Origin: Clostridia bacterium
Lineage (GTDB): Bacteria > Bacillota > Clostridia > Christensenellales > Borkfalkiaceae
DNA length: 64,000 bases
Direction: 5' to 3'
Assembly (NCBI GenBank): GCA_017467345.1
Contig: JAFTSI010000047.1
Location: 2,360-66,359 of the forward strand
Shown: one piece after another, positions 10,243 to 61,646 of the stretch
How the letters are laid out: each line of letters opens with the position of its first letter
Position numbering within the stretch: position 1 is the stretch's first letter
Notes under the pieces: generated by a model
Told to the model about the DNA's origin: nothing
The model's input: only the letters and a program-made list of their open reading frames with translations
Database searches by the model: none
Translations under genes and position numbers: made by a program

Positions 10243-11029
10243 TTGGAAAAGGACATTTTTGGCACCACTAAAAAAATGGTGGATTATGTTAATATGCGCA
10301 ATAATTGGTGCGGTGGGCGGATTTTGTGCTGGACTTATAATGTCTAAACCTGTTTATGGGTGTAGTGCAACTTATCTCGTGTCTTTTGAAAGTAGAGATA
10401 GTTTAGGGGATATAGGTGCTCAATTAGGACTTTCTAGTAGTTTACTATATAACTGCCAAGTTGTTGCGAACCAAAATTCTTATTTTTTTGAATTAGAAGA
10501 AGTGATTAATCAAGGGATTGATCAGGAAAGCCCACAATATTTAACAAGGGAATATTTACAAAGTGTTGTTACTACTACAAAGGCAGCGTCTGGAACTTTT
10601 TTATATGTTACAGTGAGGGCTGAAGAAGCTGAAAAAACAAAGAAAATATTAGATGTTGTTACGGCACCAGGAGAGTTGCAAACCGTTGGAGCTGAAAAGA
10701 AAATGGTTTACCCGAAAGGCTCTGTTGTAGGATACATGTCAAAAATGTTTACTTTTGGTACTAACACTACGGTTGGATTTTCTTTAATTAATATTCCAGA
10801 AGTTCCTGAGAAACCAGAAGGAACTGTTTCTAAAAAGATGCTTGCACTAATTGGCGGCGCGGCAGCAGGAGTTGTGGCATATCTTGTAATGTGCTTAGTA
10901 GAACTTATTACTAAACAAGTTAAAGAAGTAGATGACCTTAACAACAAATATAACGCGCCTGTTCTTGGAGTGTTATATAACTTTGAAAATAGCGAATTAA
11001 ATTACGGAGGGGATAAATATGGCTACTAA
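10205..11029 (+). CDS. Chain-length determinant / tyrosine-kinase modulator (CpsC/Wzz-like)
   Basis: N- and C-terminal TM helices flank a soluble domain, and the gene lies directly upstream of a BY-kinase. An AAGGAG RBS sits 6 nt before the ATG at 10205 (the track start 10175 is less likely). Confidence 0.7.
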   Translation: MQSKIIKDEFVINWKRTFLAPLKKWWIMLICAIIGAVGGFCAGLIMSKPVYGCSATYLVSFESRDSLGDIGAQLGLSSSLLYNCQVVANQNSYFFELEEVINQGIDQESPQYLTREYLQSVVTTTKAASGTFLYVTVRAEEAEKTKKILDVVTAPGELQTVGAEKKMVYPKGSVVGYMSKMFTFGTNTTVGFSLINIPEVPEKPEGTVSKKMLALIGGAAAGVVAYLVMCLVELITKQVKEVDDLNNKYNAPVLGVLYNFENSELNYGGDKYGY

Positions 11030-11858
11030 GAATAAAAAATTTATTAGTGATAAAACTCATATTTTAGATGAAAACTCACCCTTTATTTTGACTGAAACTA
11101 TGCGCCACTTGATGTCAAGCATAAGTTTTGCCGTCCCTAAAAAGGAAAATGGTGGGAAGGCTATTTGTATTAGTTCTGCTATTGCTGGTGAAGGTAAAAC
11201 TACCGTTGCAACTAACCTTGCAATTACTTTTGCTACTGCTGGGTATAAAACTGTCATAATTGACTGCGATATGAGAAAACCCCGTATTAAAACTATGTTT
11301 GGTCTTCCAAGGGGGAAGGGGCTTGTAGATTATTTAAGTGGACAAGTATCATTTGAAGATATTTTGAAAAAAGAAGTTAGACCTAATTTAGATGTAGTGC
11401 CTACTTATAAAACTGCGCCTAACCCCGCAGCGTTATTTAATAGTAGAGAGTTTGATGCTATGATGGATTCTTTAATTAAAGAATATGAGTATGTTATAGT
11501 TGATACGCCACCTGTTAATGTAGTGTCTGATGGAATACTTGTTGCAACAAGAACTGATGGTATAGTTTTAATTACAAGGCCATACTATTCTGACCATAAA
11601 AATATTCAAAACGCTCTTAACAGTATTGCATTTGCAGATATTGAATTCTTAGGTTTTGTCGCAAATAATATTGAAATTAAAAAGTCGGGTAAGAAAGGCT
11701 ATTATAATAAGTATTATAAATACGGCTATAGCGATAACGGTAGAAAAAAGCAAGAACTAAAAGAAAATACTGATGATGCTATCTCTAATGACCAAGTAGC
11801 AGAAAATAGCCAAGAAACTACTGAATTAAGTAAAGAAAATAAGCCTATAGTGGAGTAA
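11019..11858 (+). CDS. Capsular tyrosine autokinase (CpsD/BY-kinase)
   Basis: Walker A GEGKTT, Walker A' VIIDCDMRKP and Walker B VIVDTPP. Tyr-rich C-terminal cluster GYYNKYYKYGY. Confidence 0.85.
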   Translation: MATKNKKFISDKTHILDENSPFILTETMRHLMSSISFAVPKKENGGKAICISSAIAGEGKTTVATNLAITFATAGYKTVIIDCDMRKPRIKTMFGLPRGKGLVDYLSGQVSFEDILKKEVRPNLDVVPTYKTAPNPAALFNSREFDAMMDSLIKEYEYVIVDTPPVNVVSDGILVATRTDGIVLITRPYYSDHKNIQNALNSIAFADIEFLGFVANNIEIKKSGKKGYYNKYYKYGYSDNGRKKQELKENTDDAISNDQVAENSQETTELSKENKPIVE

Positions 11859-16124: not shown

Positions 16125-17870
16125 ATGGAACTAAAAAATTATCATATAGACGATATAAACGCCGTTTTAGGCTGTATGCGAAAAGACAAAAAGGCAAATG
16201 TTCACTTTATGCCAATTTATAAGCAATACTATGTTAGAAGTGAAGAGTGGAGTGGTTGGCAACTATTTGAAACTTGGAGCAAGGGCCGTTTGCCTTTAAA
16301 TAATAGCAAAGGCATTTGGTATACTAATATTTTGGTAAGTTATACCGATATAGATGGCAAGTTTAGGCAATTCAACTTTACCAACTTAAGACCCGACTAT
16401 CAAATATTTAAAAACGAAGCATACGACTATATATTTCCAAGGTTTAGTTTGCGTGCAGGTAAATATAAGTTTACTGTAACAAGCCAAATATACGAAGACT
16501 TAATGGAATATTTAAAAAAGCCAGTAAAGGAAGAGTTTACCGATACCCTTGAAGTAATAGTTCCAGAAGAAGGCCCCGTGCTTTTATATTTATGCGCAGG
16601 TGTTAGCGTAGAATACGATAAGTTTCAAGAGTTTGACACAATCTTTTGGAAGTGGGAAACAAAGCGCAAGGTGGTTAGCAAAAACTTTGAACATTGGTTT
16701 TTACAACTAACCCCCGAAGAAGCCGAAAAACTATATAAGTTTTGGCGAGTTAACACCGACAAGGTGGAAGTAATTCCAAAAGGCGAGCCGTGGGGCTTTG
16801 AAAAGGTGGCCACTAAACCCGCCGCCAAAACAACCACTAAAAAGAGTGGCAGTTCGGCAAAACCTGTAAAAAGCGATTATGACGAAAAGGTTAACGCCGT
16901 TAAAGGCAATTCTACTACAAGTAAACTTTTAATAAGCGATACCTATGGCGATAAAGGTGTGTTTCGTGGCGCGCAAGTTTTTGCAGAGCCTAATGGTAAT
17001 TACGAATACATAACCTTACGCGAATCGCAAACCCTTGGCATAGATAAAAAGATGAAAGCCGAAATATATACCGATGGCGATATATTCTTTTACCAAGAGA
17101 ATAAGTATGGCATAGTGGGTGGCGCGATAAGAACAAACAATAACGGTGGAATATATTATACCTATACTGATAGCAACGGCTTAAAACAGCGCTACACTAT
17201 AAGCATTAACCCAAACAACATAAATGTATACGAAATTAAAGATGGCTATTTAACAGGTAAAGCCTATTCTGTAACTGCAAATGATGTGTGTGAATCGCGC
17301 ACAAACGGTGCAAAAATTATGAGTGAAGATAGGCTAATATCAACCCCATTATACGCAAAGTTCCCATCTTGCAAAATTGATATACCAAGCGCATTAACGG
17401 GTAAAAGCCTTTACCTAACCCAAGACCCTAATAATTATAGTTACGCGCAGTTTTCTAATGGCGCAGTAAACGGTTATGGATTATATAGCACTAATATTTC
17501 ATATGCAGGCTCATTAAATAAAAACGGCCCACACGGAGTGGGCATTTGCCGAAACAGTAAAGGGGTTGCGTGTATGGGTGGCTTTAATAATAAGAAAATG
17601 CAAGGCTTAACATTTATGATTAATAATGATGTTGAGTATATTTGCAGTTATAATAACGGTAATGCCGAAGGAATGTTTTTAGAACTAAGAGATGATAGGG
17701 TAATATTTACTAAATACGATTACCCTGGAAAAGTTGCCGATAGAAGTATAGTGATATATAGTGGTAAAAAGGGATTTGGTTTTTATAATTCCATAGATAG
17801 ATACGGCGCATTAAACAATGTTCCAATGGTATATCACAAGGGCGGCGGAGTTACTACAAAACATAAATAA
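16125..17870 (+). CDS. Hypothetical 581-aa protein: conserved N-terminal domain, K/P/T-rich linker, C-terminal MORN-like G-rich repeats
   Basis: Long ORF with a GGGGG RBS and no signal peptide. The C-terminal NGYGLY...GPHGVGI...MQGLTF...AEGMFLE periodicity resembles MORN repeats. Paralog of the next ORF. Confidence 0.8.
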   Translation: MELKNYHIDDINAVLGCMRKDKKANVHFMPIYKQYYVRSEEWSGWQLFETWSKGRLPLNNSKGIWYTNILVSYTDIDGKFRQFNFTNLRPDYQIFKNEAYDYIFPRFSLRAGKYKFTVTSQIYEDLMEYLKKPVKEEFTDTLEVIVPEEGPVLLYLCAGVSVEYDKFQEFDTIFWKWETKRKVVSKNFEHWFLQLTPEEAEKLYKFWRVNTDKVEVIPKGEPWGFEKVATKPAAKTTTKKSGSSAKPVKSDYDEKVNAVKGNSTTSKLLISDTYGDKGVFRGAQVFAEPNGNYEYITLRESQTLGIDKKMKAEIYTDGDIFFYQENKYGIVGGAIRTNNNGGIYYTYTDSNGLKQRYTISINPNNINVYEIKDGYLTGKAYSVTANDVCESRTNGAKIMSEDRLISTPLYAKFPSCKIDIPSALTGKSLYLTQDPNNYSYAQFSNGAVNGYGLYSTNISYAGSLNKNGPHGVGICRNSKGVACMGGFNNKKMQGLTFMINNDVEYICSYNNGNAEGMFLELRDDRVIFTKYDYPGKVADRSIVIYSGKKGFGFYNSIDRYGALNNVPMVYHKGGGVTTKHK

Positions 17871-20173: not shown

Positions 20174-20418
20174 GCAAGTGGCTTGTTATATACGCCTAAC
20201 GGCAATGATATACACACTTCGTGTGATGATATACCATTGCTTTCGCTGGTGGATAAAATGACACGAAATAAATCACTGCAAAGCCGTGCATATCATTAAA
20301 ACGCAGTTTTGCATATCACCAAGGCATAAGCCTTGTATATCATCATTGCGAAAGAATGCAACTGTTTGTTGATGATATACACACTTCGTGTGATGATATA
20401 CCATTGCTTTCGCAATGG
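20174..20418. repeat. Motif/hairpin array A (core TGATAT / ATATCA alternating with short stem-loops); contains a 42-bp perfect direct repeat
   Basis: Units are listed in the findings. 20205..20246 is identical to 20372..20413. Confidence 0.7.
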
Positions 20419-20420
20419 AT

Positions 20421-20451: not shown

Positions 20452-20526
20452 TGGCAGGGGTAGCAGGATTTGAACCTACGAATAACGGAGTCAGAGGCCG
20501 TTGCCTTACCGCTTGGCGATACCCCT
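20452..20526 (-). tRNA. tRNA-Gln (anticodon CUG), CCA encoded
   Basis: The reverse complement reads AGGGGTATCGCCAAGCGGTAAGGCAACGGCCTCTGACTCCGTTATTCGTAGGTTCAAATCCTGCTACCCCTGCCA. It has a 7-bp acceptor stem, a Gln-type D-arm (GCCAAGCGGTAAGGC), anticodon loop CTCTGAC and a GGTTCAAATCC T-arm. Confidence 0.9.
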
Positions 20527-20720: not shown

Positions 20721-20743
20721 AGCGATAACTTAATAAAAAAACT

Positions 20744-21003
20744 ATGACGAAGAGTGGTTTGCTAAGTAGTTTCAAAGAGATACGGCGTTTGGTGAAAGTT
20801 CGTAAAACGGTAGGCAAAACCTGTAACTTCCGAGTTGGAAGAAGAAATCGCAAGAGAGTAGAACTTTCCCGTGTGTGCTACGAAAGTGCATAGGAATTGA
20901 TAGATTCCAAAAAGTGGCGTGGGAACGCAATTTGAGTGGTACCGCGGGTGTGATAATAAACAATGCTCCCGTCTCAAAGCAAGTGCTTTGAGGCGGGATT
21001 TTT
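20744..21003 (+). promoter_or_regulatory. T-box riboswitch leader (tRNA-sensing transcription attenuator)
   Basis: K-turn-like TGACGAAG...CTTCCGAG, AG bulge AAAGAGA and distal loop TTGGTGAAAG. The T-box sequence AATTTGAGTGGTACCGCGGG lies at 20929..20948. Terminator stem cccgtctcaaagc/gctttgaggcggg plus a T-run lies at 20968..21003. Confidence 0.85.
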
Positions 21004-21022
21004 CGTTAAAGGAGAAAAGGTA

Positions 21023-23317
21023 ATGAAAGGAAACAGCGAACTTGATTTAAAAATCAAGGAGATGGGCGCGAGAATTAAAGAACTTCGTGAAATTGAAGGC
21101 TTGACCACGGCGCAAATGGCATCAAAAACAGATGTTTCGGTAAGTGAATACGAAGCGTGCGAAAAGGGCGAAATGGATTTAAACTTTGCCTTTATTTATA
21201 GATGTGCAAATGCCCTTTCGGTCAATGTAACCGATATTATTGAAGGTTATAGCCCCACGCTTAAATCATACACTTTAACAAGGTTTGGTAAAGGTCAAAA
21301 AATCGCGCAAGCGCACGGTATGACATACTATAACCTTGCCTATGCTTTTAAAAACCGTATTGCAGAGCCACTTTATGTTCGCTCTACCTATTCTGCCGAA
21401 GCGCAAAATGAAGAGATTGAATGCACTACTCACGCAGGTCAAGAATGCGATATCGTTATTGATGGCTATTTAAAAGTTAAGGTGGGCGACCACGAAGAAG
21501 TGTTAGGCCCAGGCGATAGCATTTACTATGACAGTTCAACTCCACACGGTATGATAGCCGTAAATGGTAAAGACTGTATTTTCTATGCAATCGTATTAAA
21601 CCCCACGGGCGAACCTATTCCAGAGTTTGATGAGAACTTAAAGCCTGTTGAAAAAACCGAAAGCGCGCCTGTTAAAGACGATAAGGAAAGGATTTGGCAT
21701 AAATATATAGATGTAGAAGAAAACGAAAAGGGCACTCCCACCAAGATTGAGTTCAAAAACACCGAAAACTTTAACTTTGCTTTTGACCTTGTTGACGCAC
21801 TTGCCGATAGAGAGCCCGATAAACTTGCAATGCTACACATTTCTAAAGACTTAACGGAACGCCGTATAACCTTTATGGATGTTAAGCGCGAATCTTCAAG
21901 ATGCGCAAACTATTTTAAGTCGTTAGGCATAAAGAAGGGCGATAAGGTAATGCTTGTATTAAAGCGCCATTATCAATTCTGGTATGCTATGATAGGCTTA
22001 AACAAACTTGGCGCGATAGCAATACCTGCAACCAACCAACTCCAAGAACACGATTTTGAGTATAGGTTTAAGTCGGCAGAAGTATCGGCAGTAATTTGCA
22101 CGGCAGATGGCGACACGGCAGAGCAAATTGACCTTGCGTCTAAAACTTGCCCCAACCTTAAACATAAATTAATAGTAAACGGTAGCCGTGATGGTTGGCG
22201 TAATTTTGATGAAGAATGCGCAATGTTCCGTTCGGTATACCCAAGAACGGAAGACGCACCTTGTGGCGACGACCCACTTTTAATGTTCTTCACATCAGGA
22301 ACAAGTGGCTATCCAAAAATGGCACTACACAACCATAAATACCCACTTGGCCATTTCCATACTGCTAAATACTGGCACAATGTTGACACCGAAGGCTTGC
22401 ACTTTACCATAAGTGATACAGGCTGGGCAAAATCAATGTGGGGTAAATTATACGGGCAATGGCTATGCGAAGCGGCAACTTTTGTATTTGACTTTGATAG
22501 GTTTGACGCAAAAGAAATATTGCCTATGTTCGCAAAACATAAAATTACCACTTTCTGCGCTCCACCAACAATGCTCCGTATGCTTATAAAGCAAGATATT
22601 TCGCAATACGATTTTTCTTCTGTTAAGCATATGACAACGGCAGGCGAAGCCCTAAACCCAGAAGTATATTATCAATTTGAAAAACTTACAGGCTTAAAGA
22701 TTATGGAAGGCTTTGGCCAATCTGAAAGCACAATGATGATAGGTAACCTAACAGGCCAAAAGAACAAACTTGGCTCAATGGGTAAGCCTGCGCCTATCTA
22801 TGATATAGATCTAATTGATAGCGACGGCAAGTCAGTTGCCGTAGGTGAAGTAGGCGAAATAGTAGTAAATGTTGAAAAGGGCGCGCCGTGTGGTCTTTTT
22901 GGTGGCTACTATATGGATTTTGATAAAACTATGGAAGTTTGGCACGACGGGTATTACCACACAGGCGATACTGCTTGGCGTGACGAAGATGGCTATTACT
23001 GGTATGTTGGTAGAGTAGATGATGTTATAAAATCAAGTGGCTATCGTATAGGGCCGTTTGAAATTGAAAGCGTTATTATGGAACTACCATATGTATTAGA
23101 ATGCGGTGTTTCGGCAGAGCCCGACGAAGTGAGGGGTCAAGTAGTAAAAGCAAGCATAGTTTTAGTTGAAGGAACTGAAAAAACCGAAGAATTAAAGAAA
23201 GAAATTCAAAACTATGTAAAAGAAAAAACTGCACCCTATAAATACCCAAGAATAGTAGTTTTCCGTGATGAACTTCCCAAAACAACAAGTGGCAAAATCA
23301 TTAGGAATAAACTATAA
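21023..23317 (+). CDS. Fusion protein: XRE-family HTH + cupin domain (about 200 aa) + AMP-forming acyl-CoA synthetase/ligase
   Basis: The N-terminus has an HTH_3-like LREIEGLTTAQMASKTDVSVSEYEACEKG and a cupin H..G.E..V..G...V motif. The C-terminus has FFTSGTSGYPK, TGDTAWRDEDGYYWYVGRVDDVIKSSGYRIGPFEIES and PKTTSGKI (ANL superfamily). A GGAG RBS precedes the ATG at 21023. Confidence 0.85.
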   Translation: MKGNSELDLKIKEMGARIKELREIEGLTTAQMASKTDVSVSEYEACEKGEMDLNFAFIYRCANALSVNVTDIIEGYSPTLKSYTLTRFGKGQKIAQAHGMTYYNLAYAFKNRIAEPLYVRSTYSAEAQNEEIECTTHAGQECDIVIDGYLKVKVGDHEEVLGPGDSIYYDSSTPHGMIAVNGKDCIFYAIVLNPTGEPIPEFDENLKPVEKTESAPVKDDKERIWHKYIDVEENEKGTPTKIEFKNTENFNFAFDLVDALADREPDKLAMLHISKDLTERRITFMDVKRESSRCANYFKSLGIKKGDKVMLVLKRHYQFWYAMIGLNKLGAIAIPATNQLQEHDFEYRFKSAEVSAVICTADGDTAEQIDLASKTCPNLKHKLIVNGSRDGWRNFDEECAMFRSVYPRTEDAPCGDDPLLMFFTSGTSGYPKMALHNHKYPLGHFHTAKYWHNVDTEGLHFTISDTGWAKSMWGKLYGQWLCEAATFVFDFDRFDAKEILPMFAKHKITTFCAPPTMLRMLIKQDISQYDFSSVKHMTTAGEALNPEVYYQFEKLTGLKIMEGFGQSESTMMIGNLTGQKNKLGSMGKPAPIYDIDLIDSDGKSVAVGEVGEIVVNVEKGAPCGLFGGYYMDFDKTMEVWHDGYYHTGDTAWRDEDGYYWYVGRVDDVIKSSGYRIGPFEIESVIMELPYVLECGVSAEPDEVRGQVVKASIVLVEGTEKTEELKKEIQNYVKEKTAPYKYPRIVVFRDELPKTTSGKIIRNKL

Positions 23318-23329
23318 AAAATGGCTTTC

Positions 23330-23359
23330 AAAAACCGTGGCAATCGCCACGGTTTTTTT
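23330..23359 (+). terminator. Intrinsic terminator
   Basis: Stem ccgtggc/gccacgg with flanking A5 and T7. Confidence 0.8.
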
Positions 23360-23444
23360 AGTTATATTTTATTCGCGTTGCTCATAAAAGTTTTGGTGTA
23401 AATTATAATTAAAACCACAACTTTGGCGCAAGCCAAAATATTAC
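23360..23444. repeat. Motif/hairpin element B, an inverted copy of the core of element D
   Basis: 23360..23444 aligns to the reverse complement of 31995..32080 with about 6 differences in about 86 nt. Confidence 0.8.
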
Positions 23445-23704
23445 TCTTTTGCTTTGCGAAATTACCCATTATATATTCTATATATAAAGTTTAACTAAAA
23501 AAGTCATTATTTATTACTCAAAGTATAATAAAAAGGTGTAAACTTTAATATTATACTTGCTTTTAATTTTTTTTGATATAAAATTATTATGATGCAAAAT
23601 ATAAAGTAGGGAAAAGTCTGCATTTTTTCGTAAGCCCAAATGGTTTAAGTAAAACTTAAAAGGCAAAGCCCTATGGCAAATAATTAGTAAAAAGGAGAAA
23701 CCTG

Positions 23705-26700
23705 ATGAACACGAAATTTTCGCTTAATAACAAAACGAGAAATGTTTTGATTATTATTTTATCGTTTCTAATGGTATTATCGGCAAGTATCGGCGCGCTT
23801 TCACTTGTAAACAAGGCAAAAGCCGCTTCATATGACTTCGTTATGGTAAGCGATTCAATGGACACGAAGTATCAAGCCCACTGGCGTATAGGTCAAAACC
23901 AAACTGTAAGTGGTGAAACTTATGGTCTTTGGTCGTTTGGTGTTGGCGATATTGCTGCGGGTGGTAGTTATAGTTACACCCAAGCAACTTTTGATAATTC
24001 GGCTGGGAACTACGGCTATACCACAGGCACTGCTCACTCATTCTACTGGGGCGAAAGTGTAAACACCCGCCTTTATAGCAGTTCAAAAACCCAAAGTATG
24101 TTTAGATACTATGCAAATGCTGCGGGCTCTGTAGTATTCTCTGGCTTGATTTCAAAAGCAACCACCGATAAGCAAGACCTTGGTGGGACTCAAAACGGCT
24201 ACGATAAATTATGGATTGCAGGCCCTAACTGGGGTAACGGCGATTATAACTGGGTAAGTGGTCAAGCATACTCTATCGGTATGTATAAGGTAGATGGTCA
24301 AACTGGCGCAGTTACTGCAATTAACGAAAAATCGTATAGTAGCGAATTCGTTTACCTTGTTCCAAAAGACCCTATCACCGTAAAAGCAGGTGATGAAATA
24401 TACTTCACCTATAAGTGCACGGCAACTTCAGATGAATATAAAACTACTGCTATTGCGCTTTTCACCAGTCAATTCACTCTTGACCCAAGTAGCGGAGAAA
24501 CGGGTGGTTCTACAACCACCACTGGTGGCGACTATGTGTTCTTCAACCAAGCAGGAACTGATGGCCTTAACGATAAGTATATAAGCCACTGGAAAGCAGG
24601 TCAAAGCCAACACATTTCTGGCGAAACCAACGGAACTTGGCAATTTGGTAGTGGTGATGTTTCTACCAGCAAGGCATTGAGTTTTACTGCTGCAAGCGTA
24701 GGCACGGCAGATGCTGATGGAAACCGTGTATATACAAGTGGCTCTAACCACAACTTATATTATCAATCTTGCGCATACAACGCGCTTTACTCAACTGCAA
24801 GCACGCAAACAATGTATGTTTTAACTGCTGAACAAAAAGCGACCTTTGTTTTCTCTGGCTTAATTTCAAAAGCAACAAGCAACAAAGAGCAACTTGCAGG
24901 AACTCAAAACAACTATAACCCTGTATGGATTGCAGGTGTTAACCATACCGATGCTGCTTATAACTGGGCAAACGGTCACTCATACACCGTTGGTATGTAT
25001 AAGGTAGCATCAACAGGAACTGTAACCAAAATTCACGAAAACACCTTTACAAGCGAATATGCTTGGCTTGTTCCACAAACCGAACATGTATTAAACGCAG
25101 GCGATAAGATGGTGTTCACCATTAAATGTAACGCCGCTGCAGATGTAAACGCTACTGGAACATTAGTTCTTTTAAGTAGCAAAGCAGTAGAATATGTAGA
25201 AAACCCTGATGTAGTTGTTCCTGATGAACCAGAAGACACCCGTCCTGAAACTTTAGACGACATTATAACTACAAGTGGCTTTACTAAAATTGCTCACTAC
25301 AAGTTCGCAAACAACGGCACGGTAGCAACCGATAGCCTTGGCAACTACAACTTAACCAACAGTGGTATCGCAGTAGATTCAACTCTTGGTGGCGCAAAAC
25401 TTTCGGGAACATCTTTCATGTATGCTCCTGCAATCGCGCAAGACGGCTCTGATTTTAGTGATGCTGTAAAGGGAAGTTTCTCTGTAAGTTTCAAAGCACG
25501 CGCTATTCTTTCTAACGACGAAACTGGTCATCATATGTTATTCGGCACAGGCCTTAACGCAGATGGAGATGAATGTTTTGGTGTTTCTTGGCAAGGTAAC
25601 GACTTAGTAGTTATTGCAAGTGGCCAAGAATATAGGATAGACAATGCAAAAATTGAAAACGATATGGGTGAAACCGAAACCCTTAAAATGCTTGATGAAA
25701 CGGCATCTTGGTATCGCTATACCATTATCTATAACGAAAACAATAACGGTGCAATTACCTTAACTATTCGCGTTGATAGATTTACCGACGCAGGTATGTA
25801 TGGCACAATGACTGTTATTACCCAAAAAACCTTAAAAAATAAAATATCGTTTGGTGGTAGTTTAGAATACGGCTTTGCGATCGGCGCATCAACAACCCTT
25901 GGTGCATATCAAGAAAACTTTGCAAGTGGCTATGATTTTGAAGGCAACGCATTCTCTCCAAACATTGCAGATTTGCGCATTTATTCAGGTGTAATTGATG
26001 ATGCTGAAATACTACAAATTTGGAAAGATGATGAAGGTGCTAACTGGTTTGACCGTTCTGCAACCTATTCAATGACCATTGAAAACGACGCTAACGGTGG
26101 TATCATTACCGGTGTAAAGAACAATGTTAACTACGGTGTAAACACCAGCCTTAACATTAGTGTTCAAGCAAACACAGGTTACACTATTGCAAGCATTACT
26201 TGGAACGGAACAATGGTTCCTGTAACCAACACTTCTACAATGACCTTTACCAAACAAGTAAAGCAAGATACCACTCTTAGAGTAACCTATAACCGTATTA
26301 AACACCAAGTAACCGTTAAAGAAAACGGAGTTGTTAATAACGAATTAAGTGGCGAATACGGATATATGTCTAAGTTCAGTATCGCAGTTGATGCCGTTCA
26401 AGGTAGCAAAATTACAGGTTGCTATGTAAATGGCGAAGAAATCACACTTGAAGATAGCAGAAGTTTTGCATATGAATTCTATATTCAAGAAGATACTGTT
26501 GTTGAACTCACCTTTGAAAAGATTAAGTATAACCTTAACTTCAAAATCGCTAAAACCACTATTGAAGATGCTGATGAAAACGGCGAAATCGGTAAGATTT
26601 CAAACAGTCAATACAAAAACGATAGAGATAACTTCCCACAAGTTAAATGTGAACTTGGCGAAGAAATGACTATTGAACTTGTTGCTCCAGAAGGAAACGA

Positions 26701-26983: not shown

Positions 26984-26996
26984 TTAAAATCTAACG

Positions 26997-27026
26997 AAAA
27001 ACACGGCGAAATCGCCGTGTTTTTTT
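26997..27026 (+). terminator. Intrinsic terminator
   Basis: Stem acacggcg/cgccgtgt followed by a T-run. Confidence 0.8.
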
Positions 27027-27027
27027 G

Positions 27028-27152
27028 TTTGCCTTTCGGCAAATAAAAGGTGATATGCAAAACTTGTTTTGCGTTCAAAACAGAATATAACTTTTTATCT
27101 TTTGATAAAAAATATAACTTAAAAAATGCCACGCATTTTTGCCAAATATCGC
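27028..27152. repeat. Motif/hairpin array C
   Basis: Reads: hairpin tttgcc/ggcaaa, GTGATAT, hairpin gcaaaac/gttttgc, AATATAACT, hairpin ttttatc/gataaaa, AATATAACT, hairpin aaaaatgc/gcattttt, AATATCGC. Confidence 0.7.
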
Positions 27153-27267: not shown

Positions 27268-27296
27268 TTGACAAGTTTTTCCCCTTATATTATAAT
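27268..27296 (+). promoter_or_regulatory. Consensus sigma-70 promoter for the esterase surface protein
   Basis: TTGACA (27268..27273), 17-nt spacer, TATAAT (27291..27296). Confidence 0.65.
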
Positions 27297-31839: not shown

Positions 31840-31870
31840 TATTTTAAAAGTTAATAAATAGTTTTATATC

Positions 31871-31901
31871 AAAAAGCCGTGGCATTTTGCCACGGCTTTT
31901 T
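31871..31901 (+). terminator. Intrinsic terminator
   Basis: Stem aaaaagccgtggca/tgccacggcttttt. Confidence 0.8.
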
Positions 31902-31928
31902 AGTTTTGTTTTTTATCTAACTATAAAA

Positions 31929-32153
31929 AGTTATATTTGCCTTTCGGCAAGTGATATGCAAAACAAGTTTTGCGTGATATTCACCTTATGGTGAGTGATA
32001 TTTTGGCTTGCGCCAAAGTTGTGGTTTAAATTATAATTTATACCAAAACTTTTATGAGGAAAGCGAATAAAAATATAACTCCGTTTTGCTTGCAAAACGG
32101 AATATAACTGTGCGTAGCACAATATCACTTTTTCTTTTAGAAAAAATATAACT
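31929..32153. repeat. Motif/hairpin array D: mirror-symmetric, 4 forward motifs + central hairpin + 4 reverse motifs
   Basis: See the findings for the unit-by-unit parse with coordinates. Confidence 0.8.
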
Positions 32154-32182
32154 AAAAAACGCATCCATTTCGGTTGCGTTTT
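32154..32182 (-). terminator. Terminator of the AraC-family gene
   Basis: Stem aaaacgca/tgcgtttt with a T-run on the minus strand. Confidence 0.6.
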
Positions 32183-32185
32183 ATT

Positions 32186-33115
32186 CTATTTAAGTCCACC
32201 TATAAAACTTCTGTTTAAGAACTCATCACGGAAAGCAGATGGGGTAGTGCCCGTTTGAGTTTTGAATTCGTATATTAGGTGCTGGCGGTTATTAAAACCT
32301 GCCCTTGCGCATATTTCGTTAATGGTAAGGTTTGTGTCAATTAATAACTGTTTGCACTTTTCAATACGGAAGTTATTGAGCGATTGAATAACACTCATAC
32401 CAACATGCGCTTTGAAAAGCCTTTGTAAGTATGCCTTATTAATTCCTGCCGCCTTTGCCACATCATCAACGGTAACATTTTTATGGAAATTGTTTTTAAT
32501 ATAGTCTTGCGCCTTTTTAATGTAAATAATACCAGTTGAAACGGTAGAGGGGAGCAAGCACTTATCAAGTTCAATAAGCGCTTGTAAAAAGTTAGTTAAA
32601 TCGTTTATTTCGCGCGCCATATCTTGTTCGTTTCCAACTAAACCATGCAAATATTTTACAAGTGTGTTTTCAAGGTTTCCAGAGTCAAGCGCAGAAACAT
32701 AGCAATCACTATTATAAGTAAAGCGTTTAAGCCCTTCAAGTTTATCAAAAAAGCCCCTAATATCAACGCTTATAAGTGCGCCTGCGTTGTATTCATACTC
32801 TTTAACGGGAACAAGTTTCAACCTAATAGATAAAACTACTGATGGCTCTAAAGATTTAACTTGGTATTTATACTTAACACCTGCATCAATAATCGCAAAT
32901 TGCTTTTGACCAAGTTCAATAACAGTTTTGTTTTTCTTTGATTTGCCGTTCTCACCAAGTATTTCAAGGTCAATTAAACCACTTCTGCAATATATAAGGT
33001 CAACAGTTTCGTTATATAGTATAGAAGATGAATAATTTGGCTCAAATTTAGAGTTTGAATAGTCAATCGGCACAAAGTAGACATTTTGAAACGTATGCAT
33101 CCTATCGTATGTCAT
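32186..33115 (-). CDS. AraC-family transcriptional regulator (cupin-like N-domain + AraC HTH)
   Basis: The C-terminal double HTH reads VTVDDVAKAAGINKAYLQRLFK...INEICARAGFNNRQHLIYEFK..TG.TPSAFR. Confidence 0.85.
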   Translation of the reverse strand: MTYDRMHTFQNVYFVPIDYSNSKFEPNYSSSILYNETVDLIYCRSGLIDLEILGENGKSKKNKTVIELGQKQFAIIDAGVKYKYQVKSLEPSVVLSIRLKLVPVKEYEYNAGALISVDIRGFFDKLEGLKRFTYNSDCYVSALDSGNLENTLVKYLHGLVGNEQDMAREINDLTNFLQALIELDKCLLPSTVSTGIIYIKKAQDYIKNNFHKNVTVDDVAKAAGINKAYLQRLFKAHVGMSVIQSLNNFRIEKCKQLLIDTNLTINEICARAGFNNRQHLIYEFKTQTGTTPSAFRDEFLNRSFIGGLK

Positions 33116-54555: not shown

Positions 54556-55998
54556 ATGTTAGAAGTTAAAGGGTTAATCCAAAGAATAAACGATATAGAT
54601 AAAATACTTTCGGCAAGGAAATCGCTTGGCAACCTATCTAACTATAACTCTGGCGAAAAGGTTCACCAAAAGCAACTTGCCTTTCACAAATGCAAAAAGA
54701 AAAACCGTTGGGTATTCGGTGGCAACCGAAGTGGCAAAACAGAGTGTGGCGCAGTTGAAGTGGTGTATATGGCAAGGGGAATACACCCGTATAGAAAGAA
54801 GAAAGATGGAGTGTTTGGTTGTGTGGTATCGCTATCGCACCAAGTTCAAAGAGATGTGGAGCAAGCAAAAATACTGCATTACCTAAACCCATCTTGGATA
54901 GTAGATGTGAGTATGCTATCGGGCAAAAAAGAGAGTATGGAATATGGCGTAATAGACCAAATTCGCATACGCAATGTGTTTGGTGGAATAAGTGTTATAG
55001 GCTTTAAATCGTGCGACCAAGGCAGAGAAAAGTTTCAAGGCAGTTCGCTTGATTTTGTGTGGTTTGATGAAGAGCCACCAAAAGATATCTATGATGAGTG
55101 CCGTATGCGACTACTTGATAAAAAGGGCGAAATGTTCGGCACAATGACGCCACTTAAAGGGCTAACCTACATATATAACGAAATATACCTAAACGAAAGT
55201 GGTTCTAAAGAAGTGTGGTGTGAGTTTATGGAGTGGGCAGACAACCCCTTTTTAGACCAAGCCGAAGTGGAAAGCGTTTCAAGTTCGCTACCCGAAGATG
55301 AACTTGAAAGCAGAAGATATGGCAGGTTTAAATCGGGCACAGGGCTTGTGTATCCAGAGTTTGATGAAAACTTTCATGTGATTGACCCCATATCACTTCC
55401 AAAAGACTGGCAAGACACCTTGTCTATTGACCCAGGCTTAAATAACCCCCTATCTGCGCATTGGTATTCGGTTGACTATGACGGAAATATATATGTTGTT
55501 GCCGAACACTATCAAGCAGGCAAAGATGTGTTTTACCACGCCGAAAGAATTAAAGAGATATCGCGAAAGTTAGGCTGGAAAACAGATGGCAAGGGTAGAA
55601 TAAGCGCGCTAATTGATAGCGCGGCAAACCAAAAGACCTTGGCAGGCGTAAAAAGTGTTAGCGAACTGTTTTACGATTGCGGAATACTTGTAAACCCAAA
55701 TGTGAATAAAGATTTATTTAGTGGAATAGAGCGTGTTAAACGATATTTTAACAAAAAAAAGGGCTTGCCAAAAATATTCATATTTAAGTGTTGCGTAAAC
55801 CTTATTCGTGAACTTAAAGGCTACTTTTGGGGGAGTGGCGATAACCCTGTAAAAAAAGACGACCACTCACTTGATGAGTTAAGATACTATGTAATGACTA
55901 AACCTTCATTAGAGATGAAACCTACTGCAAAAACGGTGATACAAAAAGATAAGGAAAGGCTAATAAGGAAGATAGTAAATGAAAAGAAAAGAAGATAA
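54556..55998 (+). CDS. terL: Phage terminase large subunit
   Basis: Walker A GGNRSGKTECGA and Walker B DFVWFDEEP. C-terminal RNaseH-like nuclease region (LSIDPG..., ALIDSAA, DDHSLDELRY). Confidence 0.9.
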   Translation: MLEVKGLIQRINDIDKILSARKSLGNLSNYNSGEKVHQKQLAFHKCKKKNRWVFGGNRSGKTECGAVEVVYMARGIHPYRKKKDGVFGCVVSLSHQVQRDVEQAKILHYLNPSWIVDVSMLSGKKESMEYGVIDQIRIRNVFGGISVIGFKSCDQGREKFQGSSLDFVWFDEEPPKDIYDECRMRLLDKKGEMFGTMTPLKGLTYIYNEIYLNESGSKEVWCEFMEWADNPFLDQAEVESVSSSLPEDELESRRYGRFKSGTGLVYPEFDENFHVIDPISLPKDWQDTLSIDPGLNNPLSAHWYSVDYDGNIYVVAEHYQAGKDVFYHAERIKEISRKLGWKTDGKGRISALIDSAANQKTLAGVKSVSELFYDCGILVNPNVNKDLFSGIERVKRYFNKKKGLPKIFIFKCCVNLIRELKGYFWGSGDNPVKKDDHSLDELRYYVMTKPSLEMKPTAKTVIQKDKERLIRKIVNEKKRR

Positions 55999-56275
55999 AC
56001 AGGTAAAAGAGAAAGAAGATATCAACCGTGCGCTAATGAAAAAGGCGCTTGGCTACACGGCAGAAGAAACGGTGGAAGAATATTCAATGAAAGAAGATGG
56101 CGAAGTGTTGCTATCAAAAAAGAAGGTAACCAAAAAAAATGTTCCACCAGACATTACTGCCTTAAAGATTTTATTAGAAAGCAAAGAGCCAGAATTAAAC
56201 GAAATGACTGATGAACAACTTGAACAAGAGAAAATACGGCTCTTAAAAATATTAAGAGAAATTGAAAAGGCTTAA
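55979..56275 (+). CDS. Small charged 98-aa protein, possibly small-terminase-like
   Basis: Overlaps the terL stop. The KKVTKKNVPPDITALKILLESK segment resembles the ...PPD..A..FWLKNR motif of some Firmicute phage small terminases. Weak. Confidence 0.35.
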   Translation: MKRKEDKQVKEKEDINRALMKKALGYTAEETVEEYSMKEDGEVLLSKKKVTKKNVPPDITALKILLESKEPELNEMTDEQLEQEKIRLLKILREIEKA

Positions 56276-56286
56276 AAGGAGAAGAA

Positions 56287-58152
56287 ATGCAAGAAAACAA
56301 CGGTAAAATTACCAAATCACTTGAACAAAAAGCCAAGGAAAAGGCTCAAAAAGAACTTGTTGCTTTTGTCAAGGCAGATTTTGAAAGGCGCAGAAAAGAA
56401 AGGGTTGCGTTAGAGCGACAATGGGAACTAAACCTAAACTTTTTAAAGGGCAATCAACATTGTAGAATAGGTCTATCTGGCAATGTAGAAAAGGAAGAAA
56501 AGGAATACTTTTGGCAATCAAAAGAAGTGTTTAATCACATATCGCCCATAATGGAAACGCGCCTTGCAAGGCTATCAAGGGTTCACCCAGAAATATCGGT
56601 GCGCCCAAAATCAGATGATGATGAAGATGTTTCAAAGGCAAGCATTGCCGAAAAGTTGCTATCAGGCGCATTTAAGTCGGCAGGTCTAACAGAAACGGTA
56701 AGGCGCGCAAACACTTGGAGCGAAACTTGTGGAACGGCATTTTACAAGGTGGTATGGAATAGCAAAAGTGGTATGAAAACAGGCATTGTTGATGGCGAAG
56801 AAGTAAGGGAAGGGGAAGTGGAAATATCGGTTGTATCCCCCTTTGAAATATTCCCCGATAACTTGTATGCCGAAAAGATTACCGACCTAAAAAGCATAAT
56901 CCACGCAAAAGCCGTGCCCGTTTCGGTAATAAGGGAAAGGTATGGCGTAAGTTTAGCAGGTGGCGATATTGATGTGTTTGGTTTAACCCCACTAAATAAC
57001 TACAACTCTCAAAATGACGAAAGAAAGATACAAGACGCAGTTATCGTTATAGAGCGATACGACGCGCCAAGTTTAGAATACCCAAAAGGTAGGTTAATAA
57101 CAGTTGCAGGCGATAAACTTTTATATAACGGTGAATTGCCATACCTAAACGGTGAAAATGGCGCAAGAACATTTCCTTTTGTAAAGCAAGATTCCTTGCC
57201 CATAGCAGGAAGTTTTTTTAGTGCAAGCATAGTAGAGCGTATGATACCTGTTCAACGCGCATTTAATGCCGTTAAAAACAGAAAACACGAATTTTTGAAT
57301 AGGCTATGCACGGGTGTATTAACTGTGGAAGATGGCGCAGTTGACCTTGACGATTTAGAGGGCGAAGGCTTATCACCGGGTAAGGTATTAGTGTATAGGC
57401 AAGGCTCAAAAGCGCCCGAAATGATGGATGAATCTGCAATGCCACCAGATTTTGATTTAGAAGAAGAAAAACTACTCAATGAGTTTATAAGCATAAGTGG
57501 TGTTAGCGAAGTTTCAACGGCATCAAAGAACGCAAATCTATCAAGTGGTTCTGCGCTTGAATTGCTTGTTGAACAAGATAACGAAAGGCTTGTAATGAAC
57601 GCAGAGTCTATTAGAAACTGTTATTTAGAAATGGCGCGCCAAACATTAAGGCTATACGCACAGTTTATATCAGGGCTTAAAGCAGTGAGTTATAAAGATG
57701 CCTTTGGCAGAACCAAAATATGCTATGCCGATAAATCAACTGCACTTGCAGATGATGTGTATTTAGAGAGCGAAAACGAACTGTCATCAACACCAAACAA
57801 GCAAAAGGAAACTTTGTTTAGATTATACGATAGTGGCTTATTGTTTGATAATGATGGAAAACTTCGCCCAACCACAAAAGAGAAGTTGTTATCACTTCTT
57901 GGCTACAAAGACCTTGACTACCAAAAAGGGCTTTCAAGGTTGCACGAAGAAAAGGCTCAAAACGAAAACGAAAAGATAAGAGAGTTTGGTGTAGAAGTTG
58001 ATGAAATTGACGACCACGGCATACATATTGACGAACATATACGCTATGCGTTAAGCGAATATGAAGAACTTAGTGAAGAAGAAAAAAAGCGAATATTTAA
58101 TCACATAAACACACACAAGCAAATAATAAAAGAGTCGGCAAAAGCCGAATAG
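56287..58152 (+). CDS. Phage portal protein (621 aa)
   Basis: Called from its position between the terminase and scaffold/capsid genes, its size and its acidic C-terminal tail. No search possible. Confidence 0.65.
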   Translation: MQENNGKITKSLEQKAKEKAQKELVAFVKADFERRRKERVALERQWELNLNFLKGNQHCRIGLSGNVEKEEKEYFWQSKEVFNHISPIMETRLARLSRVHPEISVRPKSDDDEDVSKASIAEKLLSGAFKSAGLTETVRRANTWSETCGTAFYKVVWNSKSGMKTGIVDGEEVREGEVEISVVSPFEIFPDNLYAEKITDLKSIIHAKAVPVSVIRERYGVSLAGGDIDVFGLTPLNNYNSQNDERKIQDAVIVIERYDAPSLEYPKGRLITVAGDKLLYNGELPYLNGENGARTFPFVKQDSLPIAGSFFSASIVERMIPVQRAFNAVKNRKHEFLNRLCTGVLTVEDGAVDLDDLEGEGLSPGKVLVYRQGSKAPEMMDESAMPPDFDLEEEKLLNEFISISGVSEVSTASKNANLSSGSALELLVEQDNERLVMNAESIRNCYLEMARQTLRLYAQFISGLKAVSYKDAFGRTKICYADKSTALADDVYLESENELSSTPNKQKETLFRLYDSGLLFDNDGKLRPTTKEKLLSLLGYKDLDYQKGLSRLHEEKAQNENEKIREFGVEVDEIDDHGIHIDEHIRYALSEYEELSEEEKKRIFNHINTHKQIIKESAKAE

Positions 58153-58171
58153 AATAAGGGAGGGAAAACAA

Positions 58172-58615
58172 ATGGAAAACGGAAACGGTGAACAAATGGA
58201 AGTTAAAGCGCAACCCGTAGCGACGGAAGAAAATAAAGGCGAAGAAAAAACTGAAATCTCATTGGGAAAGTTTAAAGATGTAAACGCGCTACTTAGCGCA
58301 TATAACTCTTTGCAGTCTGAGTTTACCAAACGCTGTCAGCGCATCAAAGAGTTGGAGGGTAATTTAAGTGCAAACGATAATGCAGGCAAAAGCCAAACCG
58401 AAAGCACGGAAGTTGCTTGTAAAAGTAATGAAAATGTAAAAGATGAACCCTTATCCAAAGAGCAGGTTATAAAGGAGTATCTTAAAGGGTTACTTGAAAA
58501 CAAGAAAACGGCAATAATTATGGAAAGTGGTGGAGTGGGCTTAAAGACCCCTACCGATAAACCCAAAAGCATTGCCGAAGCGGGCAAACTCGCAATAGAA
58601 ATTTTAAAAAAATAA
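58172..58615 (+). CDS. Phage scaffolding protein (147 aa)
   Basis: Small, helical, charged protein directly upstream of the major capsid gene. Confidence 0.55.
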   Translation: MENGNGEQMEVKAQPVATEENKGEEKTEISLGKFKDVNALLSAYNSLQSEFTKRCQRIKELEGNLSANDNAGKSQTESTEVACKSNENVKDEPLSKEQVIKEYLKGLLENKKTAIIMESGGVGLKTPTDKPKSIAEAGKLAIEILKK

Positions 58616-58637
58616 AAAGGATTAAAAAGGAAAAATT

Positions 58638-59798
58638 ATGGCAGTAACTTTAACTAATGCGGATAAAGCGCTTAAAACTTTATATTTAGATGTAGTAGCA
58701 TCACAACTCAACACAGAAATCAACCCCTTTTTATCGGCAGTAAAACAAAGCACAGATGATGTATGGGGAAAAGAAGTTCGTAAACTTGCTATTTACGGTG
58801 TAAACGGTGGTATCGGTGCAGGCACGGAAGATGGCGACCTTCCCGACGCAACAGGCAACAACTACGAACAATTTGTTCTTACTCTTAAAAACCTTTACGG
58901 CACTATTGAAATTAGCGACAAGGCAATTCGCGCAAGTGAAAACAATTCTGGCGCGTTTGTAAGTTTACTCAATGCCGAAATGGAAGGACTTTTAAAAGCA
59001 AGCAGTTTCAACTTTGGCAGAATGCTTTTTGGTGATGGCTCTGGCGAACTTGCAAAAATTGTTTCAGTATCAGAAAATGTTGCAGTTTTAGACACCGTTA
59101 AAAACCTTATTGAAGGTATGGTAATTGATGTAAGAAAAAATAGTGGCGAAACCGTTCACGGTGCAAAGCGCATTGTATCGGTTGATAGAAAGAACAAATC
59201 GGTAGTATTAAGTGGTAGTGTAGAAGATGCAGTAGAAGGCGATATCGTAACCGTTCAAGGCTCATATAACAACGAAATCACAGGTCTTAAAGCAATCTTT
59301 GGCGAAGGCAACACTCTCTACGGCTTAAACAAAGAAACTCACGGTTGGCTCAACCCCTACAAAAAGGAAGTTGAAGGCGAAATCACCGAACTTGATATTC
59401 AAACTGCACTTGACACCATTGAAGAACAATCTGGTGGCGCAGTAAACTTTATCATTTGTTCGTGGGGTGTGCGCCGTGCCCTTCAAAAACTCTTTGCCGA
59501 AAACAAACGCAACATTGACACCGAAGTTTTGGCAGGTGGTTATAGAGCAATGACCTATAACGGTATTCCTATCGTAGCAGATAGATTTTGCCCAGAGGGA
59601 ACTATGTATTTACTCAACACCAACGACTTTACCTTATGTCAACTTTGCGACTGGCAATGGCTTGAAGGCGAAGATGGAAAGGTGTTAAAACAAATTGCAG
59701 GTAAGCCTGTATACACGGCTACCTTGGTAAAATATGCCGACCTTATTTGCGCAAGACCAATCGGTCAAGGTATGATAAGCGGTATCACCGAAGCGTAA
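58638..59798 (+). CDS. Phage major capsid protein (386 aa)
   Basis: Called from its position and size. The N-terminal ...ALKTLYLDVV...INPFL pattern is typical of major capsid families. A strong RBS precedes it and a hairpin follows directly. Confidence 0.65.
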   Translation: MAVTLTNADKALKTLYLDVVASQLNTEINPFLSAVKQSTDDVWGKEVRKLAIYGVNGGIGAGTEDGDLPDATGNNYEQFVLTLKNLYGTIEISDKAIRASENNSGAFVSLLNAEMEGLLKASSFNFGRMLFGDGSGELAKIVSVSENVAVLDTVKNLIEGMVIDVRKNSGETVHGAKRIVSVDRKNKSVVLSGSVEDAVEGDIVTVQGSYNNEITGLKAIFGEGNTLYGLNKETHGWLNPYKKEVEGEITELDIQTALDTIEEQSGGAVNFIICSWGVRRALQKLFAENKRNIDTEVLAGGYRAMTYNGIPIVADRFCPEGTMYLLNTNDFTLCQLCDWQWLEGEDGKVLKQIAGKPVYTATLVKYADLICARPIGQGMISGITEA

Positions 59799-59812
59799 AC
59801 CTAAAATTACTT

Positions 59813-59848
59813 TTGCCGAGTTTAGAAGTTAAACTCGGCAAATTTTAT
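59813..59848 (+). terminator. Hairpin/terminator immediately after the capsid gene
   Basis: 12-bp stem ttgccgagttta/taaactcggcaa followed by atttt. Confidence 0.6.
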
Positions 59849-59863
59849 AATAAGGAGAAGAGT

Positions 59864-60418
59864 ATGAAAATAAGCGATATAGTAAATTGCGTAGCCACCT
59901 ACTTGGCGCGCGAAAATGTGCTTAAATACCTTAACGGCGAAACGGAAAATATAGGCGACGCAAAAGAGCAAATAGACACTATGGTTCGCGCTTGCAACTT
60001 GGTTATAGGCGAACTTGCAAGTTCGTATATTCCTATGGTAAAACGCGAAAAGGTTATTCCTACCGATAGCAAAGTTTACTATGGCAGTTTAACAGAAACT
60101 GCTGTGGAAATACTTGCAGTAGAAAACGAAAGTGGCAAATCGGCAGTTTACGATTTTAGCCCCGAATACTTAAAAACAGGTGTTAGCCCTGCCGTTATAG
60201 TTTATAAATACTTGCCTGCAAACTACGATTTAAACGACACCGTTGGCTTTGACGCAAAGGTAAGCGCAAGAATACTTGCCTACGGCGTGGCGGCGGAAAT
60301 AACCTTAATAGAGCGCAACTTTGATGAAAGTGTAAACTGGCGCAAACGCTACACTAATGCCGTTTCCTTACTTACAGAGCCAAAGAGTTTTGTAATGGCA
60401 AAAAGGAGATGGCTATAA
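59864..60418 (+). CDS. Hypothetical 184-aa phage structural-module protein (possible head completion/adaptor)
   Basis: An AAGGAG RBS precedes the ATG at 59864 (the track ORF start 59747 overlaps the capsid gene). The stop overlaps the next start (TAATG). Confidence 0.5.
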   Translation: MKISDIVNCVATYLARENVLKYLNGETENIGDAKEQIDTMVRACNLVIGELASSYIPMVKREKVIPTDSKVYYGSLTETAVEILAVENESGKSAVYDFSPEYLKTGVSPAVIVYKYLPANYDLNDTVGFDAKVSARILAYGVAAEITLIERNFDESVNWRKRYTNAVSLLTEPKSFVMAKRRWL

Positions 60419-61629: not shown

Positions 61630-61646
61630 AATATAGGAGAATAAAA

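Follow-up and report, generated by a model that had tools for sequence, protein, structure and literature searches.

What kind of element lies between the convergent genes at 31929-32153 of the window (the whole 64-kb stretch of DNA analyzed here), where a short conserved tag alternates with small hairpins in two facing arms, and does it belong to any class of repeat or RNA that has already been described? We approached this question through the anatomy of the array, its copies in the window and in other genomes, and the known elements that it resembles.

Anatomy of the Array

On reading the sequence, we found, as the initial annotation had reported, four RTKATAT tags facing four ATATMAY tags between two terminators, with short perfect hairpins as the spacers between them (31937-31950, 31958-31973, 31981-31994, 32002-32017, 32081-32100, 32110-32120, and 32129-32145) and a looser hairpin at 32050-32072. 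The features of the locus are as follows.

31871-31901, forward strand: intrinsic terminator of 14 pairs, 7 of them GC, with a T-tail (terminator scan)
31902-31928, forward strand: decayed outermost unit, AGTTTTGT followed by ttttatc-taac-tataaaa
31929-32017, forward strand: Gut-1-like left arm of four forward tags (read from the sequence as AGTTATAT at 31929-31936 and GTGATAT at 31951, 31974, and 31995), each followed by a perfect 5-7 bp hairpin
32018-32049, no strand: central AT-rich near-palindrome with 22-nt arms, 91% complementary
32050-32153, reverse strand: Gut-1-like right arm of four reverse tags with hairpins, ATATAACT at 32073, AATATAACT at 32101, AATATCAC at 32121, and ATATAACT at 32146
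32153-32181, reverse strand: terminator-like hairpin of the convergent AraC-family gene (32186-33115, reverse strand)

The gene to the left encodes a 56-aa lipoprotein and ends at 31840; the terminator at 31871-31901 belongs to it, and its T-run directly precedes the array. On the right, where AraC domains were detected in the convergent gene product, the A-run of the 32153-32181 hairpin abuts the last tag, and the stem of that hairpin is perfect in two near-identical metagenome contigs (L121 and L122). The stretch at 31902-31928 is 85% complementary over 41 nt to the right end of a related copy at 27028-27119 (copy C, below); since the two are homologous, the array starts at 31902, earlier than first noted, and thus fills the whole space from the T-run of one terminator to the A-run of the other. 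AGTTATAT and ATATAACT give the array 8-nt terminal inverted repeats of the kind expected of a MITE. A 77-aa ORF over the array had no Pfam match, and no gene is called there in independent assemblies.

The tag RTKATAT occurs 94 times in the window, compared with 61 +/- 9 times in shuffles, and its clusters are confined, within the window, to the array and three further loci. The array folds far more stably than shuffles, with z-scores of -6.0 as RNA and -7.3 as DNA.

Related Copies in the Window

The three more copies that had been noticed within 12 kb, each beside a terminator, were confirmed at these positions.

20185-20419, no strand: copy A, with three forward, three reverse, and two forward tags of the ATGATAT subtype
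23360-23445, reverse strand: copy B, core-only and inverted relative to the array, comprising AGTTATAT, a hairpin, a near-palindrome, a hairpin, and ATATTACT
27028-27119, forward strand: copy C, collinear with the array through four segments and lacking the core and two whole units

Copy A contains an exact 42-nt internal duplication and abuts the terminator downstream of a tRNA-Gln (20452-20526, reverse strand); copy B lies directly 3' of a terminator at 23330-23357; and copy C directly follows a terminator at 26996-27025, with a consensus promoter downstream at 27268. The initial annotation had called the hairpins of the array unrelated to one another, and this did not survive comparison. 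An 80-nt core, 31993-32072, consists of the near-palindrome (32018-32049) with its neighboring segments 31993-32017 and 32050-32072 and recurs inverted, at 94%, at 23367-23446 in copy B; the array and copy C have in common ttgcctttcggcaa, GTGATAT-gcaaaac-NN-gttttgc, and the outer AT-rich hairpin; GTGATATGCAAAAC of the array is found again at 20306-20319 in copy A; and these modules are found in dozens of other genomes as well. Because modules are held in common while whole units have been gained or are missing, the four loci in the window are mosaic relatives. These are the four copies known from the source genome, and the 10 kb added to the source contig on either side held no further arrays.

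Two details of copy C are recorded here as side observations. At 27057-27083, gttttgc has two possible partners, one upstream (gcaaaac-tt-gttttgc) and one downstream (gttttg-cgtt-caaaac), in mutually exclusive hairpins, which are probably the leftover of a deletion between two units and not a switch. Also, the AT-rich hairpin ttttatcttttgataaaa (27093-27110) has an 18-nt exact match at 61262-61279, inside an ORF of a phage-like cluster; as ttttatcttttgataaaa is an AT-rich palindrome, this match is probably due to chance.

Identity With Rfam Gut-1

The initial annotation did not recognize the array as a described class of element, yet both arms are full-length matches to the Rfam family Gut-1 (RF01706; PMC2864571). 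Against the Gut-1 covariance model, the left arm (31928-32006, forward strand) scored 49.8 bits (E 1.5e-7) and the right arm (32068-32154, reverse strand) 41.4 bits (E 2.1e-5), each over model positions 1-77 of 77. These scores come from a relaxed-threshold scan and are to be read against the curated gathering threshold of 50 bits: the left arm falls 0.2 bits and the right arm 8.6 bits under it, and a default gathering scan lists neither. The tags and stems of both arms are nevertheless in register with the Gut-1 structure line, which has four GUGAAAU-like tags and three variable short hairpins, and at related loci seeded by the module GTGATATGCAAAAC-NN-GTTTTGC the arrays score 51-57 bits for Gut-1 (Rfam scan), over the threshold.

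Gut-1 was described as a candidate non-coding RNA, found in human gut metagenomes only and without known host or function, and was rated “Y” for RNA (Weinberg et al., 2010, Genome Biol 11:R31, PMC2864571). As published, it models one arm, is named an sRNA, and comes with neither host nor function. The array resembles it in having four heptamer tags (GUGAAAU in the Gut-1 consensus, GUGAUAU or GUUAUAU in the array) alternating with three short variable hairpins and in its gut metagenome origin. In the flanks of the published seed alignment (Weinberg et al., 2010, PMC2864571), the mirror layout behind a stop codon and terminator is already visible. Our literature search for Gut-1 follow-up yielded nothing beyond that paper (PMC2864571).

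Judged by these model matches, the array belongs to the Gut-1 family as a divergent copy; the class is catalogued but unexplained, and the array is no new kind of element. The present analysis adds that Gut-1 arms occur in mirror pairs, that the elements are multi-copy mosaics associated with terminators, and that their hosts are of the Christensenellales type; no searchable paper was found to report this.

Distribution and Grammar of the Family

A family scan with the module GTGATATGCAAAAC-N2-3-GTTTT as query returned at least 117 loci. About 105 of the at least 117 loci listed come from gut MAGs labeled Christensenellaceae, Clostridia, Clostridiales, Pumilibacteraceae, Ca. Scatosoma, or Catabacter, and the host guts are those of humans, goats, sheep, deer, yaks, and horses. 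There are multiple loci per MAG (up to about 9 among the matches listed), and at least 17 of the first 80 module matches lie within 300 nt of a contig end. The core of the array (TTGGT.TAAATTATAATT.AAACCAC), used as a separate query, was absent from the GTDB species representatives and gave only chance matches in coding DNA in the JGI metagenomes, and the phage and plasmid collections held no match to the window array or to the 330-nt relative described below. Two other candidates were set aside: a generic three-tag pattern on viral contigs, which mostly found giant-virus coding tandem repeats and was too unspecific, and kinship with the TAACTGA heptamer repeats, which was ruled out as TAACTGA copies are directly tandem.

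Across these loci a common grammar emerges, in which a unit consists of the heptamer tag (RTKATAT) and a short hairpin, an arm consists of three to five co-oriented units, and two arms, with their tags facing inward, flank a core. Among 487 adjacent tag pairs of the same orientation, an end-anchored perfect stem of at least 4 bp is present in 71% of spacers, compared with 2% in shuffled sequence, while in the window itself such units (tag, end-anchored stem of at least 4 bp, tag) number 10, against 0 in 100 first-order Markov simulations; the enrichment over shuffled controls that the initial annotation implied is therefore present at both scales. The 487 units contain 259 distinct spacer sequences in many stem families, with a frequent theme of T-GC-rich...A. 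Tags are most commonly spaced 21, 23, or 27 nt apart, within a range of 16-40 nt. The forward tags come before the reverse tags in 69 arrays and after them in 4, and 24 have a single orientation. The family sites are downstream of genes, mainly between convergent pairs, with none seen between divergent genes, and the number of units differs among homologous copies (L140, L192, L220, L239, and L243).

The hairpins are polar as well: loops of 3 and 4 nt take the form TNC or TNNC on the tag-forward strand (TAAC, TTGT, TTTC, TATC, TAC, TTC, and others), and none of the reverse complements of these loops was seen on the tag-forward strand of related arrays; thus, the opposite strand has GNA or GNNA loops closed by C-G. 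The window hairpins obey the same polarity. Departures from standard pairing included both G.T and A.C wobble pairs, whose strand signs conflict and point to neither strand as the one that folds.

A 330-nt Relative in Terminator Loops

Another relative is a conserved non-coding element of about 330 nt with Gut-1 arms, of which we collected 60 copies (loci within L131-L246; for example, L200:768-1162, reverse strand). Its left part comprises an imperfect inverted end, a long hairpin, four forward units, and AGTTATAT-TAAATAAATCC; its right part, after AGTTATAT-TAAATAAATCC, comprises three reverse units, AAATCC...GGATTTATTTAG, and the other inverted end. The inverted ends are imperfect, about 19 nt long, and co-differ in two variants. 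There are two size classes, of about 296 and about 337 nt, which differ by an extra hairpin within the third unit's loop. Homologous copies diverge through the presence or absence of whole units or of inserts nested within hairpin loops.

In the alignment of all 60 copies, 95% of the cells are paired, and compensatory changes occur in 30 of the 64 designated pairs, a number that was reached in none of 500 shuffles; the covariation score was 0.204, compared with 0.03-0.065 for slid controls. The earlier proposal that pairing is kept, rather than sequence, is borne out by these compensatory changes.

Each copy is bracketed by its own A-run and stem on one side and by the complementary stem and a T-run on the other, and these matching stem halves place each copy in the loop of a different terminator-like hairpin. 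A copy's own flanks were complementary over at least 10 nt in 14 of 37 cases, compared with 1.6% of mismatched flank pairs. A consistent target-site duplication was not seen at the junctions; in a few copies, 5-10 nt of the terminator stem occur twice. In co-directional gene settings, the element had the same orientation as the genes in six cases and the opposite one in five. The end-to-end distance was 289-340 nt in all 31 copies measured, and a search, in a limited sample, for an autonomous version in which an ORF parts the arms or ends met only a membrane protein, PFOR, and small membrane proteins. The ORFs that flank related arrays are diverse, with no linked gene family.

Orthologous Sites and Genomic Setting

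Homologues of the AraC-family gene next to the array are labeled Christensenellales and Ca. Scatosoma, and they allowed orthologous sites to be compared, with a divided result for the presence/absence polymorphism that had been suggested. The near-identical metagenome contigs L121 and L122 carry an identical array and hence no strain polymorphism, whereas L127 (AraC 76% identical) lacks the array, the orthologous site being occupied by a bidirectional terminator alone. L128 (AraC 71% identical) has unrelated sequence there, and in L129 (AraC 57% identical) two orthologous intergenic sites (10990-11470 and 16300-16640) are occupied by another palindromic repeat, which consists of GTCATTGCGAGC, a variable inner hairpin, and GCGTGGCAATCT and is present in several copies and both orientations. 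The intergenic positions are thus conserved as repeat havens; their occupants are not. No pair of filled and empty sites with identical flanks was recovered among the loci compared, and mobility is therefore deduced from distribution and not observed.

The window is ordinary chromosome, with an exopolysaccharide cluster, sugar ABC transporters, AraC regulators, and large surface proteins. The hairpin-recognizing enzyme that might have been expected to accompany the array did not appear: neither the 64-kb window nor the sequence beside the arrays in the sampled related loci yielded a transposase, RAYT, or other HUH gene. There were likewise no cas genes in the 64-kb window.

Three other features of the window are noted in their own right. 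First, a match resembling a T-box leader (71.7 bits, against an Rfam threshold of 93) lies at 20735-20979 on the forward strand, upstream of an ORF for an HTH-cupin-AMP-binding fusion protein (20963-23317); the T-box-like terminator at 20967-20998 overlaps the listed start of this ORF, so the true start is probably further downstream. Second, a compact phage-like cluster at about 54556-62543 (forward strand), directly upstream of ispG/gcpE, encodes a terminase large subunit, a P22-like portal, and an SU10-like major capsid protein (from Pfam matches of the identical genes in L247 and L248); a cryptic prophage, a satellite, and a GTA-like unit are all possible identities. Third, the ORF for a 1092-aa surface protein, without Pfam match, contains a duplication (24134-24293 and 24848-25007) with a 714-nt period and 73-82% identity.

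Comparison With Known Repeats

The initial annotation had held that the array was neither CRISPR nor classical REP, and both exclusions stand, on account of the 7-nt tag, the palindromic spacers, the missing cas genes, and the diversity of the palindromes. The REP/BIME elements are nonetheless close in kind. They too are short palindromic units with an unpaired conserved tag at one end, clustered and with many inverted pairs, and they lie downstream of ORFs, between convergent or co-directional genes (Di Nocera et al., 2013, PMC3733652). Tagged REPs have GTAG or CGTC heads (Di Nocera et al., 2013, PMC3733652), whereas the tag here is the heptamer RTKATAT. Both kinds are species-specific and multi-copy. 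Unlike the one to three conserved palindrome types of REP/BIME, the family has hundreds of distinct spacers (259 in 487 units), with modules recurring at homologous positions, and its units do not alternate but are co-oriented within an arm, with the two arms inverted. REP/BIME elements number more than 100 per genome; four loci are found here in 64 kb, and up to about 9 per MAG among the matches listed. Unlike for the RAYT-mobilized REPINs, no RAYT was found in the window or beside the sampled arrays, the hosts being Firmicutes-type Clostridia.

As for MITEs, an autonomous partner with the same ends and a transposase was not found in the limited sample covered by the 31 distances and the flanking ORFs. 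The pneumococcal BOX elements are modular, MITE-like repeats built of boxA, a repeated boxB, and boxC, and the family shares several of their traits: they are non-coding, 100-350 nt long, intergenic, and dispersed, with inverted ends, a variable number of internal modules, and a strong predicted fold. The sequence, however, is unrelated, and the internal modules here are tag-and-hairpin units of about 21-23 nt; compared with BOX, moreover, no target-site duplication or partner transposase was seen, and the 330-nt relatives sit in terminator loops. With CRISPR, the array shares only the regular interspersion of short conserved elements with variable ones. CRISPR repeats of 24-48 nt with unique, non-palindromic spacers and cas genes differ from a 7-nt tag with recurring palindromes in two inverted arms.

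Taken together, it seems probable, if not assured, that the array is one copy of a dispersed, non-coding palindromic-unit repeat of the REP/BIME or MITE kind, whose arms are what Rfam calls Gut-1. The family is multi-copy and mosaic, variable in unit number, and limited to terminator-proximal DNA 3' of genes; it is present or absent at orthologous sites and placed independently of the orientation of the flanking genes.

Alternative Explanations

The main rival to a dispersed repeat is a functional structured RNA of the Rfam sRNA type, in which single-stranded GUGAUAU tags would bind or titrate an RNA-binding protein or RNase, or in which the stacked hairpins would work in cis at the 3' ends of the neighboring mRNAs, either blocking 3' exonucleases or insulating against convergent read-through. 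We consider this explanation rather unlikely, although several points favor it. The very stable predicted RNA fold (z of -6.0) agrees with it, and the strong covariation fits RNA as well as it fits the dispersed repeat. The mirror design would present the forward arm first to transcripts from both sides, and incoming transcription from each side does always meet that arm. Placement 3' of genes is also that of REPs, which act on mRNA 3' ends. Both arms match a family that was itself rated “Y” for RNA (Weinberg et al., 2010, PMC2864571). On the other hand, strong intrinsic terminators precede the arrays and the next promoter comes only after them, which puts them mostly outside the predicted transcripts; a promoter scan found none inside the window arrays. 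The 330-nt relatives occur in either orientation to co-directional genes, at a ratio of 6 to 5, and have unique flanks, unlike duplicated sRNA genes. In addition, the loop types of the tag-forward strand are not stable RNA tetraloops, and the element is present in many copies per genome and breaks assemblies.

A second alternative, which we regard as improbable, is that the array is read as double-stranded DNA, with the heptamers, about two helical turns apart and inverted between the arms, serving as multiple sites for a protein such as a transposase (compare the ends of Tn7 and Mu and the subterminal repeats of Ac and En), a nucleoid protein, or an iteron-type initiator. The commonest spacings (21, 23, and 27 nt), the opposition of four sites to four in inverted order, and the inverted ends of the 330-nt relatives would all suit such an array. 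But the spacing varies from 16 to 40 nt, the tag numbers of the two arms are mostly unequal, the setting is not one of replication or partition, and the plasmid and phage collections contain no match. Binding to duplex DNA would also leave unexplained the 71% of spacers that are palindromic, the compensatory changes, and the strand polarity of the loops.

The array might also form a single long cruciform or “ladder,” in which each forward tag pairs with its mirror reverse tag to give stacked four-way junctions flanked by side hairpins. Two of the tag pairs of the window array, the outermost, are perfectly complementary, and the minus-strand DNA fold forms part of such a ladder; the RNA minimum-energy fold, however, consists of local hairpins only. 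In the 69 mirror arrays, moreover, the variable tag position equals that of its mirror partner in 56-58% of cases, compared with an expected 50-52%, and the arms mostly differ in tag number. In the absence of covariation between mirror tags, and given the unequal arms, the tags are recognition motifs and not pairing partners, which makes the ladder a very improbable structure. Finally, although the tag is short and the region AT-rich, chance or low complexity is practically dismissed by the absence of any such unit from every one of the 100 simulations, against the 10 observed, and by the identical grammar in about 105 other loci among the matches listed.

Proposed Mechanism and Significance

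For a dispersed repeat, which we favor, the tag and hairpin unit would be read in single-stranded form, as ssDNA or RNA, by a trans-acting enzyme whose putative role would be analogous to that of RAYT in reading GTAG and the REP hairpin. Arrays could grow and shrink via recombination or slippage between identical tags. Because the insert folds on itself, the flanking or host terminators would be spared and the copies could persist. A side effect would be the added stable 3' structure on read-through transcripts from both flanking genes.

More specifically, and only tentatively, Gut-1 arrays could be the cis recognition modules of an unrecognized ssDNA-hairpin transposition system in gut Clostridia, a Firmicutes counterpart to REP/RAYT. 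The heptamer tag and the mini-hairpins with GNA or GNNA loops would be its signals, and insertion would take place into or beside terminator hairpins, where the insert would refold and termination would survive.

Taken alone, the window array is a further divergent copy of a catalogued motif. For the family, the findings reach further. Gut-1, a candidate sRNA in Rfam since 2010 without a host, is now placed in uncultured Christensenellales-type Clostridia of human and ruminant guts; its model covers just one arm of a mirror-symmetric element; and that element, a dispersed repeat, breaks assemblies and is tied to intrinsic terminators, with relatives inside terminator loops. This shifts the focus from sRNA targets to insertion polymorphism, the partner enzyme, and terminator function, and it is of practical value for MAG assembly and annotation in the Christensenellales-type clade. 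If the arrays do prove to serve ssDNA transposition, then an orphan “sRNA” of Rfam would be the signature of mobile DNA.
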